From the sequence record NC_041937.1: DNA of 64,000 bases; one strand, 5' to 3'. This DNA comes from Escherichia phage V18. Made by a program: the position numbers and the translations under genes. Under the pieces are notes generated by a model, which was given only the letters and a program-made list of their open reading frames with translations, did no database searches and had not been told where the DNA came from. Within the stretch, counting starts at the first letter, position 1; each line of letters starts with the position of its first letter. Of the stretch, positions 31,929-45,728 are shown piece after piece.

Positions 31929-32129
31929 ATGATCAACACACATGCATCTGAAGGAGTGACGACATGTAGCCTGGATGAGCCAGTTAAAGAGGAAAACTTA
32001 GATTCTGATGACTCTTCATCTTCGTCCCAGACAGATCCTGAGGCTGATGACCTAACGTGGGAAGACATCGTAGACATCTGGTTCTCTATTATGCCTGAGC
32101 ACGAAGAGTTCAGAGGTGGTAGACTATGA
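31929..32129 (+). CDS. hypothetical acidic serine-rich protein
   Basis: 66 aa ORF. Confidence 0.3.
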   Translation: MINTHASEGVTTCSLDEPVKEENLDSDDSSSSSQTDPEADDLTWEDIVDIWFSIMPEHEEFRGGRL

Positions 32130-32250
32130 AGCACCGAGCCCACACAGATTCCTCATGCTAAAGCATGGCCTGAAGAGGCAAACGTGCATAATTCCAGCGT
32201 ATTGGAACGTATAAAACCCTGTTCACACTCTCATTTCCAGAGGAGATTTC

Positions 32251-32466
32251 ATGAAGATAGAAATATTTGGTGGAGCTGACAACACTCGTGGCCTGATTTA
32301 CCTTGAATTTGATGAATCATACCTGCCAGAGGTGTTAAATATAGACTCTGTTGCTGAGGCTTTGGGAGTAAACCCTAAAGAACTCCACTCTTGTGCTGAG
32401 ATCGATGGTTGGGAAGAGACCATGAACATTGATTTCAGTGAAGTGGAGGATGAACCGCTAGACTGA
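32251..32466 (+). CDS. hypothetical acidic protein
   Basis: 71 aa; RBS AGAGGAG; MKIEIFGG start; last plus-arm gene. Confidence 0.4.
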   Translation: MKIEIFGGADNTRGLIYLEFDESYLPEVLNIDSVAEALGVNPKELHSCAEIDGWEETMNIDFSEVEDEPLD

Positions 32467-32593
32467 CGCACAATTAGCTGCCCGGCTAAAGTGCTGGAAG
32501 CACCTATAACACATCTTTCAACTAAATTTCCTACCACCACAATCACTTACCTCCCGCACATGACTGTTTGCTTGTTTAGTGAGCAGTCATGCC

Positions 32594-32621
32594 TTGACAT
32601 TCTTGCCTATCCTGATAAAAT
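32594..32621 (+). promoter_or_regulatory. sigma70-like promoter (TTGACA-16-TAAAAT) firing into ORF-free DNA
   Basis: -35 at 32594-32599, -10 at 32616-32621; no credible ORF downstream. Confidence 0.5.
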
Positions 32622-33160
32622 TAAGTTCTTCTCTTTTCTTTTACCGAGTAATTCGGGTTTTCTGTTCTCTTCGGTTTGAAGGGGTATGGAGATACACCTG
32701 AGTGAACAGGGTGAACAACCGAACCATTAGCTATGGCATTAGCATGGCGAAGCGGACGGGTGACGAAAGAGGGGCCGGAGGACACCAGTCACTGCCATAT
32801 GATATATGGGTGATAACCTGAAGAGTCTGAATAAGTGTTTAAGTACCAGTCAGAGGAAAAGGTGAATGGTAGCCGAAGGGGGGAGGGGGGTTTCTTGTAT
32901 CTTTAATTTGTATATTATGTATACACTTGTAAACCAATCTAATCTGAATCTGTTTACCACACAAAGCGGATAGAGACAAATATTGCCTATTAAACTTGAA
33001 TTATTTATAGAAAATACCACAACACCCCTTAAGTCTTTGATTTACACACAAATCCTACAGATATTCAACCTCCATATTTAACATACTTGTAACATATTCC
33101 ATACTCTACCTGTCTGATCAATTTCCCAACTACATTCTCATATTTTCCCTGTCTGTACTA

Positions 33161-33356
33161 CCCCTGCCCCGCCGGGAGTCCCGTCATATCTGGCTTTCCA
33201 GCAAATATCACACCCACAAATATCATTGCCTGAAGAGGGTTTCATCCCATAATACCTGCCTTACCTGAAGAGCGCTTCATACACCACGTAAATTTTTTAA
33301 TTGACCTCCCCCTGCCCCTCCGGAGAGGTTGGCTTTTCCCACACAGACCTGAAGAG
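33161..33356. repeat. cluster of short direct repeats
   Basis: cccctgcccc-g/t-ccgg-g-ag at 33161 and 33308; cctgaagag at 33229, 33264, 33348. Confidence 0.5.
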
Positions 33357-33976
33357 TCAGCCAGAAATATCTGAATAGGCCCGATCTGCCCAGTCAGGAG
33401 CCAGTAGCGACTGGAGTGCTGCCAGGCGGACGGAATGGGAATACTTCTCATTCTTATAACAATTCTCAAATATCGAGGCAGTGAGAGAAATTAATAGGCC
33501 AGGCCGTTCACACAGTGGCACAACATTTGCAACCTATCCTGTGGGGATGAATGAGAATACCTATCATTGTGAGAACTATTATCATTACGGGCAATTTAAC
33601 ATAATACCCATTATGCGCACCACTGGCGATACATACAGGGATTGATACCATGAGTTACAGTTTACACACATAACAATTATATTTCTTACTATTTGTGTGG
33701 GATATAGTTAGCAGCCAATAGATTAGATATTGACCTGTAGACTTCCAACCGTCTGGACGTCTAAACGCCCACACACCAAGGGTTATACATACATCGCTGA
33801 ATGTAAACAGGGCCGCAAAAATGCTACCATACCAGTTTGTAAATTTTTCATGCAGCACTTGACAAAGAGGAGAAAAACTTGTCTGACACAATGTCACACA
33901 ATATGACACTTTACACTGGACACACTAGGCACAAAAAAAAAAAACTGCAGTGACTAGGTCACCCCTTCAGGTGTTT

Positions 33977-34171
33977 CTATGACATAATATAAAAGCAGGG
34001 CAACTATTACAAATCTAAAGTTGCCTTGCTTGTTATGTCATGATTAACTAAATACAAGGCAACTATGATCTGATTAATAGTTTGCAGACAAACTATCACG
34101 GGGGTGATGGTTACTGCTTTTATATTATGTCGCGACTCCGTCGCGCCATGCCATTCGTTTGCATAGTTGCC
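33977..34171. repeat. palindrome-flanked iteron cluster
   Basis: 19-bp inverted arms at 33980-33998 and 34114-34132; GGCAACTAT copies at 33999, 34048, 34087 (variant) and inverted at 34017, 34163. Confidence 0.55.
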
Positions 34172-34824
34172 TTATTGTTACAGATAAAATAATTGTATTG
34201 TTAATTATTTCTTATCTTTCTATTAGTCATCTAATGATTCCAGTTAGTATAGTAACGTATAGTAAACATTAGACGACTAAATATTTCTCTGTTTATGATA
34301 ACTCACCGTAATAATTTCGGACTGTTTACGAAAAATGTTGACACCCTGGCTGATTTATGTTATGCAATTTAAACGAATAATTATTTTATGCAGGTATTGA
34401 CTATTCCGTTATTCTATGGTTGGAATAAATACTTAGCAGGCTATAGAATGGTGAGCGTACGTAAATTCTGAGATCTGTCGGCTATAGTTATACCCGATTT
34501 TTCACGTAGAACACGCTTTCGATGCTGTGTAAGTGTATGACTTATAAAGATTTTTAGTTGTTGACAAGATATTGGAGATGTGCATCAGGTTAAAATTTGT
34601 GCAATAGCGGCATTACGTGCACTTTTGGGAGAGAAAACGGGTAAAAATGGACTTGCTACCACACAATGAAAAATTATGCAATAGCTATTTTACATGTATG
34701 TTTGTACAGTGCGGGCAATTGATGGCTCGTCAATTATTCCACTTGCCAGGTAGGGCCGTTTATGGTAGGGGGAAGAGCAGACAAAAAGAAAGGGGCCTAA
34801 GCCCTTGATAATTCAGTTAAAAAA

Positions 34825-35987: not shown

Positions 35988-36197
35988 AATGTTTTCCTCT
36001 CTTCTGGTTGTTGTGTGGGCACTTTTGCCCCTTCAAGATAAATAATATCCCACCACCTGGCAGATGTCAACGGTTTTTATAGTTTTTATATAACAGGCAC
36101 CCCCGGTGATTGTCTCCCCCCGTCGCCAGGTGCCACCCGTGAAACAAGTATAACAAAAAACAGGACAAAAACAAGCCCTGTTTTGTAGATATAAGGA

Positions 36198-38101: not shown

Positions 38102-38118
38102 CCCCCCCCCCCCCCCCC
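38102..38118. repeat. homopolymeric C17 tract (G17 on the coding strand)
   Basis: 17 consecutive C residues counted in the sequence, 37-53 nt upstream of the 38065 start. Confidence 0.9.
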
Positions 38119-43941: not shown

Positions 43942-44139
43942 TTATTTTTTATTAAACCAGTGGTTGATCTGACCTTTTGTCAGGGCGCAACGGTTAAGCT
44001 GTTGCAGGGTATAGCTATGACCGCGACGGAATTTATAAAGGCCTTGCCCGTTGTTGATGGTTACATCCACCCGGCAAATCACTTGATTGGTGACCACCTG
44101 GCGAGTATTGCGACGTACTTTAATTCCGTAGGCGTTCAT
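43942..44139 (-). CDS. hypothetical basic protein
   Basis: 65 aa; RBS AGAGGATAAA. Confidence 0.35.
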   Translation of the reverse strand: MNAYGIKVRRNTRQVVTNQVICRVDVTINNGQGLYKFRRGHSYTLQQLNRCALTKGQINHWFNKK

Positions 44140-44215: not shown

Positions 44216-44386
44216 TCAACCATTGGTTAGAATTATTTTTTGGGCAGAATCCCCGCCCAGGTTAACCATCATTTTTTCGTACTCTTCTTTATGTTCCAAT
44301 GCTTCCGTTTTAGCCTTTTCGACCAGGGTGATAGCCTCAGCGTCATTAATCGCTACATTTCCCAGGTGAGTAGCATTACCTTTCAT
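44216..44386 (-). CDS. hypothetical small protein (56 aa)
   Basis: strong RBS GAGGAGGT 7 nt before ATG; translation checked by hand. Confidence 0.4.
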   Translation of the reverse strand: MKGNATHLGNVAINDAEAITLVEKAKTEALEHKEEYEKMMVNLGGDSAQKIILTNG

Positions 44387-44544
44387 TTTTGTACCTCCTC
44401 TTCAATTGTTTACCCTACAGCATGGGCCTACCAGGTTTGCAAGATTTCACCCTCTCCCACCTGGTCAGTTAGGTCCTGCCAGGCTGGCCCCGCCAGGTTG
44501 CAGCGGTTGGCGCATTATGTTAGAAAAAAAATTTTGAAAAGGTG

Positions 44545-44573
44545 TTGACAGCGGCCCCGCCAGGTGGCACAAT
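44545..44573 (+). promoter_or_regulatory. sigma70-like promoter on the plus strand inside the minus arm
   Basis: TTGACA at 44545-44550, 17-nt GC-rich spacer, CACAAT. Confidence 0.4.
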
Positions 44574-44670
44574 ATACCTATCGAAAGGACGGCAGGCACC
44601 GGTGACGGGGGAGACAACCACCGGGGATGGGCGCTGCATAAAATGAGAACGGTTATCATTATCATTTAAA
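44574..44670 (+). ncRNA. candidate small non-coding element, copy 1
   Basis: no ORF; GGGAGACAACCACCGGGG core and GAGAACGGTTATCATTATCATT tail; paralogous to 44720-44800. Confidence 0.3.
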
Positions 44671-44719
44671 AATTTATGCAAAAAATCCTTGCTTTCTTTG
44701 TCCTGTGTGATACTATAAT

Positions 44720-44800
44720 AACAAGCCGGGGCAACAGGGGCCGGGAGACAATCACCGGGCCTGCCCGTTATTCTGCAAACGAGAATGATTATCATTCAAA
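44720..44800 (+). ncRNA. candidate small non-coding element, copy 2
   Basis: TATAAT at 44714-44719 upstream; GGGAGACAATCACCGGG core and palindrome GAATGATTATCATTC. Confidence 0.3.
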
Positions 44801-44913
44801 ATTCTAAATGAGAACTCCTCGCATTTAACAAATTTAATTAGCATGCTAATTACCTTCCGTAACAATTTCCTATAAAATAGTACCCCATAAAATATTCCCA
44901 TATAGAAATTTTA

Positions 44914-45089
44914 AAAATCCATTTCTGAAAACGAAAAATCGATTTCGTTCCCAAAAATTTTAGACCTGGTGCTGGACCAATTTCAAGAAAATCCGATTCA
45001 GAAAACGAAAAACAGATCGAGTACCGAAAAATTTATCGAGAAAAATTTTCAGAAAATTCAATCTTTGAAACGAAAAACAGATCGAGTAC
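44914..45089. repeat. tandem direct repeats (three units of ~66-74 bp)
   Basis: gaaaacgaaaaa(c/t)... at 44927, 45001, 45067; a 23-mer is identical between units 2 and 3. Confidence 0.7.
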
Positions 45090-45401
45090 TTGGAAAGCTG
45101 TGCCGCAACTTCAAGATAGTGGTTGGATTATTACCATAAAAGGTCAAGGGTAAGCGGAGGAAGTTCCCGTAGAAGGGTGTGAGCATGTGCGGGAAATCTG
45201 TAATGGTGATCTGGAATATGGTGCAAACGATAGGATGAGTGATTCATCTCGTCGTGCCTGCTCTGAAAAATCCATTTTAGTTTTCGATCCATTTTCTGAT
45301 TTTCTAAGGATTTTAAAATATCCGGGCAGGTAAAATATCAAAAGGAGGAAATCCATTTTAGAAATCCCCCTTACACTTGATATGCCAGGAATTTTCAAGT
45401 A

Positions 45402-45728
45402 TCAGCTGTTTTTGTTTTTAGGTTTGTACATGCGCAGAGGTATGGTCGTAACAGTCCATCTCCCCAGCCCTTCCCAGTTCCAGTTGTAGGCATGGTACCC
45501 GGTTATGCATGCACTGCTAGAGTGGTCATAGGCATAAGAGAACGCTATACGCACCAAATGGAACCAGTCTTTCCACGGTTGTGGTCCGTAAGCTTTTCTC
45601 CAACACCGACACAAACTAAATGTCTCAAGAATAGGCAGGATAACAAATCCATACACCGCCACCAGAATAGCCAGCGCAATGATTGTCAGGAATACATACC
45701 CTGCAGTTGAAACGATGATCTCTGTCAT
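45402..45728 (-). CDS. membrane protein
   Basis: 108 aa; N-terminal YVFLTIIALAILVAVYGFVILPIL. Confidence 0.4.
   Translation of the reverse strand: MTEIIVSTAGYVFLTIIALAILVAVYGFVILPILETFSLCRCWRKAYGPQPWKDWFHLVRIAFSYAYDHSSSACITGYHAYNWNWEGLGRWTVTTIPLRMYKPKNKNS

Follow-up and report, generated by a model that had tools for sequence, protein, structure and literature searches.

A three-unit repeat array at the centre of a conserved, gene-free module in rV5-like phages

Introduction

Iteron-type replication origins, such as lambda ori, P1 oriR, and those of iteron plasmids, are direct repeats of short boxes in the same orientation, with iterons of 17 to 22 bp lying in an A/T-rich, bent-looking context into which transcription is directed. 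At the T7 primary origin, T4 oriF and oriG, and ColE1 RNA II, tandem host or phage promoters lead into a non-coding stretch, and ColE1-type origins have a structured primer RNA of approximately 0.5 kb. The CsrB and RsmZ sponges, ToxI, and the pseudo-ToxI of phage phiTE are promoter-driven non-coding RNAs composed of tandem protein-binding motifs, and the partition sites F sopC and P1 parS have tandem units longer than iterons. In rV5-like phages, no replication origin has been mapped (PMC3606486).

Phages of the rV5-like and phi92-like groups are in common use for therapy and as models, and they include members of the BASEL collection and O157 typing phages. The stretch analyzed here (hereafter the window) comprises 64,000 nucleotides of Escherichia phage V18 (NC_041937.1) and is an rV5-like coliphage genome (Vequintavirus). 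An initial annotation made from the letters alone had pointed to three tandem units carrying a common motif in this DNA and had proposed a second iteron-type origin, a partition-like site, or a recombination hotspot. In this study, we compared the array and its surroundings with those of related phages. As judged from sequence comparison, it belongs to an undescribed, gene-free control region of approximately 1 kb (hereafter the module), kept almost unchanged in rV5-like phages of many bacterial hosts, which is probably transcribed to a non-coding RNA or is a protein-docking site. Little DNA near the early genes is as conserved as this region, parts of which are conserved across subfamilies.

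Results

Three tandem units and their boxes

A repeat search detected three direct copies of 47 nt at 44914–44960, 44988–45034, and 45053–45099 (spacing 74 and 65), the second and third being 79% and 62% identical to the first, and a shifted self-match of the region against the whole window gave an E value of 1.4e-9 by BLAST. Boxes of the AAATCCATTT type (hereafter box A) occur six times on the plus strand, at 44915, 44989, 45054, 45268, 45285, and 45349, with irregular spacings of 74, 65, 214, 17, and 64 bp. Three copies of AAATCCATTT are exact and lie within 445 bp (range scanned for exact copies, 44300–45450); those at 44989, 45054, and 45285 are weaker. In the 64 kb, AAATCCATTTT is exact only at 45268 and 45349 and has one mismatch at 44915, and GAAAACGAAAAA is exact at 44927 and 45001, against a chance expectation of 0.8 matches in the window. 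The repeat search, the self-match, and the box scans agree that the three units and the AAATCCATTT-type boxes are real, and the gene positions agree with the placement of the array between two minus-strand genes. The motif that the initial annotation had assigned to all three units was found in the first two, and the third reads GAAACGAAAAAC, with one A fewer; the reported 23-mer identity between units 2 and 3 exists, but over 22 nt (45003–45024 and 45068–45089). Tandem Repeats Finder, which had been suggested as a check, did not report the array and returned only mini-repeats of 14 to 15 bp at 44867 and 45026. The same program recorded a homopolymer run of 17 C at 38102–38118. Because comparison with other genera moved the start of the first unit upstream, the array is taken as 44882–45093 (Table 1).

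Table 1 Features of the module, with positions in the window unless another locus is named
Feature	Position	Strand	Remarks
P1, sigma-70-type promoter-like site	44545–44573	+	TTGACA-17-CACAAT, TG before -10; opposes flanking genes
U2a, GC-rich conserved element with GGGAGACAACCACCGGG	44577–44637	+	Paralogue of U2b
Fur-box-like site 1	44645–44663		16/19 vs E. coli Fur consensus, read on minus strand
P2, promoter-like site	44689–44719	+	TTGCTT-16-TACTAT, overlapping TATAAT; read from sequence
U2b, most widely conserved element (...GGGAGACAATCACCGGGCCTGCCCGTTATTC)	44722–44773	+	80–88% identical in other subfamilies
Fur-box-like palindrome 2	44781–44799		15/19
Degenerate third Fur-like box	44806–44826		29 bp from palindrome 2, spacing as in other genera
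19-bp palindrome (TTAATTAGCATGCTAATTA) overlapping candidate P3	44834–44866	+	P3 TTAGCA-17-AACAAT at 44838–44866
Repeat unit a	44882–44952	+	Degenerate A/T tract, box A (AAAATCCATTT), GAAAACGAAAAA, core CGATTTCGTTCCC
Repeat unit b	44953–45026	+	A/T tract, 26-nt spacer, box A, GAAAACGAAAAAC, core GATCGAGTACCG
Repeat unit c	45027–45093	+	Two A/T tracts, box A variant AAAATTCAATC, GAAACGAAAAAC, core GATCGAGTAC
Variable-sequence, fixed-length segment (~172 nt)	45094–45265	+	Consensus RNA fold signal on plus strand only
Two box-A copies (AAAATCCATTTT, GATCCATTTT)	45267–45296	+	About 17–18 bp apart; counterpart of 12-bp-phased clusters in other genera
Two AAATATC boxes	45316–45339	+	17 bp apart
Last box-A copy (GAAATCCATTTT)	45348–45359	+	AAGGAGG before it; ~40 bp from stop codon of 108-aa minus-strand gene
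HNH insertions at right edge of module	L023 3093–3680; L025 3068–3634; L026 2844–3515		

Coding status and conservation within Vequintavirus

The genes around the array are all small, early, and on the minus strand. The array is bounded by 45402–45728 on one side and by 44216–44386 or 43942–44139 on the other; the flanking ORFs encode small hypothetical proteins that correspond only to PHROGs of unknown function, and no Pfam match was found for them. We aligned 19 Vequintavirus genomes with an overall divergence of 6 to 10%. In the ORFs within 44387–45401, the variable columns were distributed evenly across the codon positions (e.g., 14/14/15 and 39/40/42), and in the flanking genes they fell mainly at third positions (10/5/54, 23/14/56, and 6/4/32). 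No reading frame is open across the module in every genus. The flat codon-position variation and the lack of a common open frame leave the annotated ORFs (rV5 ORF198, ORF199, and those in other records) unsupported, and protein coding was rejected; 44387–45401 is thus non-coding and strongly constrained. Databases leave this region blank or fill it with such ORFs, and the small hypothetical genes annotated there should be regarded with caution. The 56-aa minus-strand ORF at 44216–44386, the left bound of the module, showed flat variation (16/21/22) and many indels among relatives; it is perhaps no real gene, and the non-coding stretch may then extend to approximately 44200.

In the 19 genomes, the blocks 44550–44850, 44900–44960, 44987–45058, 45266–45322, and 45340–45372 were invariant or nearly so and more conserved than the flanking genes, and 44961–44986 and 45094–45265 were free in sequence but almost never in length. 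The former of these two segments includes the 26-nt spacer of unit b, of fixed length and varying sequence. The initial annotation had proposed comparing the repeat copy number among related isolates, with free variation or absence pointing to neutral slippage. The number was three, with no indels, in all 19 aligned genomes, 114 of the 115 matching records covered at least 80% of a 561-nt query over 559–561 nt, and the array recurs in other genera, so copy number is clearly neither free nor reduced to absence in relatives. The 22-nt identity between units b and c is specific to the lineage. On these alignments, the units are under purifying selection and are not products of slippage.

In a database search, 44400–45500 was matched by 120 phage records with up to 94% identity and with coverage of at least 80% in 110 of them. 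Approximately 16 to 20 records of 128–143 kb labeled as Campylobacter jejuni phages (MG0656xx: A141, C7, C2, and others) are about 92% identical to the region, and the sequence filed under CP057073.1 as an E. coli "plasmid" of 137,565 bp is that of a Vequintavirus; all of these seem to be mislabeled or contaminant entries.

The module in deeper relatives

The triple array also occurs in Mydovirus, Seunavirus, Certrevirus, Henunavirus, and W70, having been found in Mydo, PVP-SE1, CR8, phiTE, Hena1, W70, and several uncultured contigs. Array length is 195–216 bp everywhere, and the core spacing across the other genera is about 63–71 and 74–84 bp (Mydo, 67/74; PVP-SE1, 67/75; Hena1, 69/76; CR8 and phiTE, 63/78; W70, 64/84); the spacing of 75/65 in the window results from a shift of the unit a core. 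The AT content of the array is 68% in the window and 51% in CR8 and phiTE, and neither AT-richness nor purine-richness is kept across genera; both were rejected as conserved properties.

When the left part of the module was used as the query in a distant search, the 60- to 100-nt U2b element (44722–44830) was recovered at 80–88% identity from 271 records; the PVP-SE1 version as a query found 353 records. The matches span Vequintavirinae, Stephanstirmvirinae (phi92 and phAPEC8 types), and Aeromonas phages and are nearly always unannotated. The order of elements is common to these loci: a promoter and a GC-rich element; a second promoter and U2; one to seven palindromes of the TGAGAATnATTCTCA form about 29 bp apart; a third promoter, the three tandem units, and about 170–180 bp of unalignable sequence; and then three or four box-A-like repeats (12-bp spacing), two or three AAATATC boxes, and the stop codon of the next minus-strand gene. 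In the PVP-SE1 group, box A is present in both orientations, including the inverted one. In a very distant contig (L043), U2 and the palindromes are kept, the three tandem units of approximately 65 bp are unrelated in sequence, and the module is co-oriented with the neighboring genes.

The neighboring genes are not the same from genus to genus. A neighbor of about 275 aa in other genera was considered as an initiator and rejected, as it has no known domain and is missing from the window; also rejected were small plus-strand ORFs that other genera have upstream of the module, in several of them at its left edge, and that belong to three mutually unrelated families likewise missing from the window. 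Directly at the right edge, PVP-SE1, Hena1, and Aeromonas phage 2L372D carry inserted HNH homing-endonuclease genes, and SYGMH1 has a gene annotated as Clp protease (L020 2570–3145). The borders of the module are insertion hot spots.

Searches of plasmids, of E. coli genomes, and of 185,000 bacterial species genomes returned no homologue; the one exception was a phage genome that had been filed as a plasmid. Of the Rfam 15 families, none reached its gathering score, whether against the window or against seven related loci, and only chance-level matches (E up to 10) were obtained. None of the database records listed by the searches annotates the module as an origin or an RNA, and in the literature searched we found nothing on it and no transcriptomes, transcript data, or origin mapping for rV5-like relatives. 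The box marked "non-coding" in the rV5 paper was considered and is a different region, the 2.6-kb gap between ORF163 and ORF164. In the window, this gap corresponds to a second large ORF-poor region, at about 32000–34600, which lies at the strand and GC-skew switch and contains the least stable duplex of the window (34171–34270), short tandem repeats (33884 and 34247), and a run of 13 A.

Promoter-like sites, U2 elements, and palindromes in the left half

The array is the center of the approximately 1-kb non-coding module, in which three promoter-like sites of the host type oppose the neighboring genes. P1 has plus-strand orthologues in Mydo, PVP-SE1, and W70 (strong in W70), and in P2 the hexamers are kept across genera with a varying spacer. 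The P3 counterpart in the window is weak (4/6 + 4/6, 8/12) and falls under the threshold of the promoter scan; at the same position, the scan found P3 in Mydo (TTGACT-17-GATACT) and PVP-SE1 (TTGACA-18-GAAAAT), and that of W70 (TTGACA-17-GATATA) was read by eye. In the other genera, the -10 element of P3 ends 0–7 nt ahead of the block that opens the array. Three plus-strand sigma-70-like sites each were found in Mydo (2278, 2438, and 2595) and PVP-SE1 (2300, 2460, and 2586), the latter having six sites in total versus 1.6 expected. The AT skew on the plus strand is positive at the module only, unlike in the neighboring DNA. A terminator-like site on the plus strand was found neither in the window nor in three other genera (L022, L023, and L027), and a weak terminator-like hairpin on the minus strand lies within unit a.

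The U2a block is 98% conserved in the 19 genomes, and covariation support for the U2 elements is weak. A third U2-type copy (GGGGAGACAATCACCGGGGGTGCC) lies on the minus strand at 36090–36140. A terminator-like hairpin and a promoter-like site (TTGTTT-16-TATACT) immediately precede this copy, and a TTGACA-type promoter-like site resembling rV5 P168 directly follows it; with this copy, the genome has a three-member family of GC-rich, promoter-proximal elements sharing a conserved loop sequence. Other genera have a different first element, ...CGCCACCCCACGGCGAAAAGGCGGGGCTAAC...GGTGGATCGCCGG (L022 2310–2420, L023 2330–2440, and equivalents), with a possible pseudoknot in which CCCC:GGGG is swapped for CCAA:TTGG in Hena1-like phages. 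The Vequintavirus counterpart at 44400–44540 is indel-rich and degenerate-looking, and a duplicated U2 (U2a) stands in its place.

The only sites in the 64 kb with at least 15 of 19 matches to the Fur consensus GATAATGATAATCATTATC are those at 44645, the top match in the window, and 44781. Relative to the promoter starts, they are about 60 bp downstream for P1 and P2 and about 58–90 bp upstream for P3. Four Fur-like palindromes were also observed at 33436–33584, in pairs 18 bp apart and clustered with AAATATC boxes at 33203, 33218, 33365, and 33468. Since Fur-like palindromes and AAATATC boxes occur at both non-coding regions, one DNA-binding factor, possibly host Fur, may serve both.

The units and the right half

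The cores of 27 units from nine lineages could be aligned without gaps, with the common blocks AAAAT(A/C)C..., TGAAAA, and TC(G/A)AG. RNAalifold found no base pair common to the 27 cores, and the folding of single units gave weak mean z scores of -0.76 and -0.46. One hairpin per unit, whether in RNA, in ssDNA, or as a terminator, was therefore rejected, and the units carry no RNA-specific signal. With no common pairing and with AT and purine content not kept, the units are read as sequence-specific recognition elements, being neither hairpins nor a generic unwinding element; each is best described, from the alignment, as a linear composite motif consisting of an A/T tract, box A (AAAATCCATTT), GAAAAAC, and a TCGAG-type core.

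Downstream of the array, length is conserved more than sequence. Measured from the third unit core, the first AAATATC box lay 235–241 bp away at 11 of 13 loci (247 and 251 bp at the remaining two), and the first right-hand box lay 189–194 bp away wherever this box was recognizable. The intervening DNA cannot be aligned between genera and is only 57–75% identical among alleles within Vequintavirus. There, 45094–45265 (172 nt) has at least three very divergent alleles of the same length; its flanks are invariant, and elsewhere the genomes are about 92% identical. About 63% of its columns vary, close to the synonymous rate. The pattern of equally long, divergent alleles points to cassette-like exchange or to very rapid evolution with length or fold constrained. 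As the distances shift by a few bases and not by whole helical turns, a folded domain would fit better than helical phasing.

The consensus fold of 45085–45275 had an energy of -14.8 kcal/mol on the plus strand, with 33 pairs, 5 to 6 of them compensatory, versus -2.2 on the minus strand. Column-shuffle z scores were -2.18 for the plus strand (7 of 300 shuffles), +0.37 for the minus strand, and +0.64 for a coding control, and the covariation score was matched by 1 of 500 shuffles. Of the cells, 95.5% pair, the shuffles already giving 93.5%. Four further sequences keep 30 to 33 of the 33 pairs, and the divergent, 57%-identical allele L003 keeps 18. The fold signal, confined to the plus strand, is modest and not decisive. 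With only 19 variable columns out of 183, the Mydo group offered no power for a structure test.

Discussion

Our best, tentative reading is that the right half of the module encodes an early non-coding RNA of about 0.45–0.5 kb, in which the repeated linear motifs would serve to bind one factor in several copies. We infer that host RNA polymerase would transcribe it early from P3 (approximately 44838–44866), against the surrounding genes, so that the three units would form its 5' body, followed by a folded domain of fixed size and free sequence and then by the 3' box-A cluster, near which the RNA presumably ends. The left half would consist of two promoter-driven elements, U2a and U2b, and the Fur-box-like palindromes, which are spaced 29 bp apart and follow P2 shortly before P3, are probably operators controlling P3. 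Linear unit motifs, a 3' box-A cluster, and a folded domain between them together suggest a multivalent platform, a sponge or a scaffold, for several copies of one presumed binding partner. The promoter abutting the array in other genera and the plus-strand-only fold downstream point to a role at the RNA level, in which the motifs would act in RNA and not in DNA. Against it stand the missing plus-strand terminator, the weak P3 of the window, units without a common structure, the modest fold signal of the variable segment, the weak covariation of the U2 elements, the inverted box A of the PVP-SE1 group, and the palindromes, which are DNA-type sites.

The main rival, which we consider unlikely, is a replication origin or initiation zone in which the box-A copies and cores are DNA iterons for a phage or host initiator and transcription from P1 to P3 activates or primes replication, as at lambda ori, the T7 primary origin, T4 oriF and oriG, and ColE1. 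Phages of this group need an origin (none mapped; PMC3606486), and the six box copies in the same orientation, the 12-bp-phased cluster of other genera, the promoters pointing into the array, the presence of box A in both orientations in the PVP-SE1 group, and the unit b spacer, which varies in sequence but not in length, would all suit one. The duplex at 44770–44920, around P3 and unit a, is the third or fourth least stable of the 64 kb in a context where the array is 68% AT; however, AT-richness is not kept (51% in CR8 and phiTE), and the larger, less stable non-coding region at about 32–34.6 kb is an equally good candidate, if not a better one. The cumulative GC skew turns near 32 kb, at the strand switch and not at the module, so skew was rejected as evidence for an origin here. 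No initiator-like gene is adjacent and the neighbors change between genera; DnaA boxes with at least 8 of 9 matches and the IHF consensus WATCAANNNNTTR are absent from both strands of 44380–45410; and distances differ by 1–5 bp and not by helical turns, with irregular box spacing in the window. Thus, of the initial interpretation, a functional, non-CRISPR element made of short-box direct repeats stands, and the iteron-origin and partition readings miss most of their defining features.

It is less probable still that the module is a transcription-control region or insulator, in which operators and converging promoters separate and time two leftward early operons, the units being regulator sites that modulate RNA polymerase and the RNA product being irrelevant. 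The plus-strand promoters do converge on leftward genes, palindromic operator-like boxes 29 bp apart lie about 58–64 bp upstream of the P3 start, similar palindromes cluster with AAATATC boxes in the other non-coding region (33.2–33.6 kb), the annotators of phiTE placed a terminator within the module, and unit a contains the weak minus-strand hairpin. For this purpose, however, a simple terminator would suffice, and about 450 bp of conserved architecture with exact distances would be left unaccounted for; moreover, the stems are AT-rich and not kept as hairpins, and in contig L043 the module has the same orientation as the genes beside it.

A pac recognition site bound by the small terminase is very unlikely. 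Multi-repeat sites are typical of pac and cosB, the module is approximately 2 kb from terminase genes in contig L043, and several database records begin or finish inside it, but such record starts are few and consistent with the arbitrary opening of circular assemblies. In rV5-like phages, the module belongs to the early region and is separated from the terminase gene by tens of kilobases; in phiTE it is at 39 kb with the terminase at 108 kb.

Neutral slippage or duplication without function has practically no likelihood and is refuted by the comparative data, since the degeneracy of the repeats (62–79% identity) and the lineage-specific b/c identity, which would fit it, are set against invariant cores, a fixed copy number, and conservation across genera and subfamilies. 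A CRISPR array, for which the initial annotation had also judged the repeats too degenerate, was rejected because the copies are divergent (79% and 62% identical) and their number is fixed at three in all relatives; the "spacers" contain conserved A/T tracts, and the sole Rfam CRISPR match (16.9 bits versus a threshold of 36) lies off the array at 45163–45196. A type III antitoxin RNA (ToxI or pseudo-ToxI) was rejected on unit length (67–75 nt), divergence, and the lack of a toxin gene, and the pseudo-ToxI locus of phiTE, at 106.7 kb near tRNA and terminase genes, is separate from the phiTE module at 39 kb. A tandem-repeat centromere of the sopC or parS kind was rejected on the lack of consensus pairing in the 27 cores and of adjacent partition genes.

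If the reading as an early non-coding RNA is extended beyond this genome, the loci could constitute an undescribed, widely conserved family of early phage non-coding RNAs, a triple-repeat RNA of about 0.5 kb accompanied by small U2-type RNAs (three copies per genome), in Vequintavirinae, Stephanstirmvirinae, and Aeromonas phages, with more than 350 sequenced genomes. Fur-box operators would tie expression to the iron status of the host, and the long RNA would act on a conserved host or defence factor by sequestering or scaffolding it. We regard this proposal as possible but doubtful. Whether it is an RNA platform or an origin, the module offers a defined, testable cis element with which to study how the programme of these phages begins, its coordinates, motifs, and distances being given exactly.

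Compared with iteron origins, the module shares the directly repeated short boxes in one orientation, the A/T-rich, bent-looking context, and the inward transcription, but its units are 65–75 bp and irregularly spaced in the window, no Rep gene is adjacent, DnaA and IHF sites are lacking, and AT-richness is not kept across genera. Its tandem promoters leading into a non-coding stretch resemble those of the T7, T4, and ColE1 origins, and the predicted RNA has the size of the structured ColE1 primer; the downstream element of those origins needs little specific sequence, whereas the module keeps its motifs and exact distances from genus to genus and yielded no RNase H-type or primase site. Like F sopC and P1 parS, it has tandem units longer than iterons and dyads in some units, but it has no flanking partition genes, the dyads are not kept, and the phages are lytic. 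The likeness to Fur boxes concerns only the neighboring palindromes, as matches of 15/19 or more to GATAATGATAATCATTATC are confined to the module in the window, and the putative sites do not overlap a -35/-10 pair as in the usual repressor arrangement. We take the TGAGAATnATTCTCA form of the palindromes to resemble the aerobactin (iucA) operator. With regard to the repeat RNAs, the module has no GGA motifs, unlike CsrB and RsmZ, and differs from ToxI in having divergent units of 67–75 nt instead of 36 nt, a copy number fixed at three, and no toxin partner. Nevertheless, it shares with them the predicted plan of a promoter-driven non-coding RNA of tandem protein-binding motifs, and, as seen from the pseudo-ToxI of the related phage phiTE, a repeat RNA does occur in this phage lineage.
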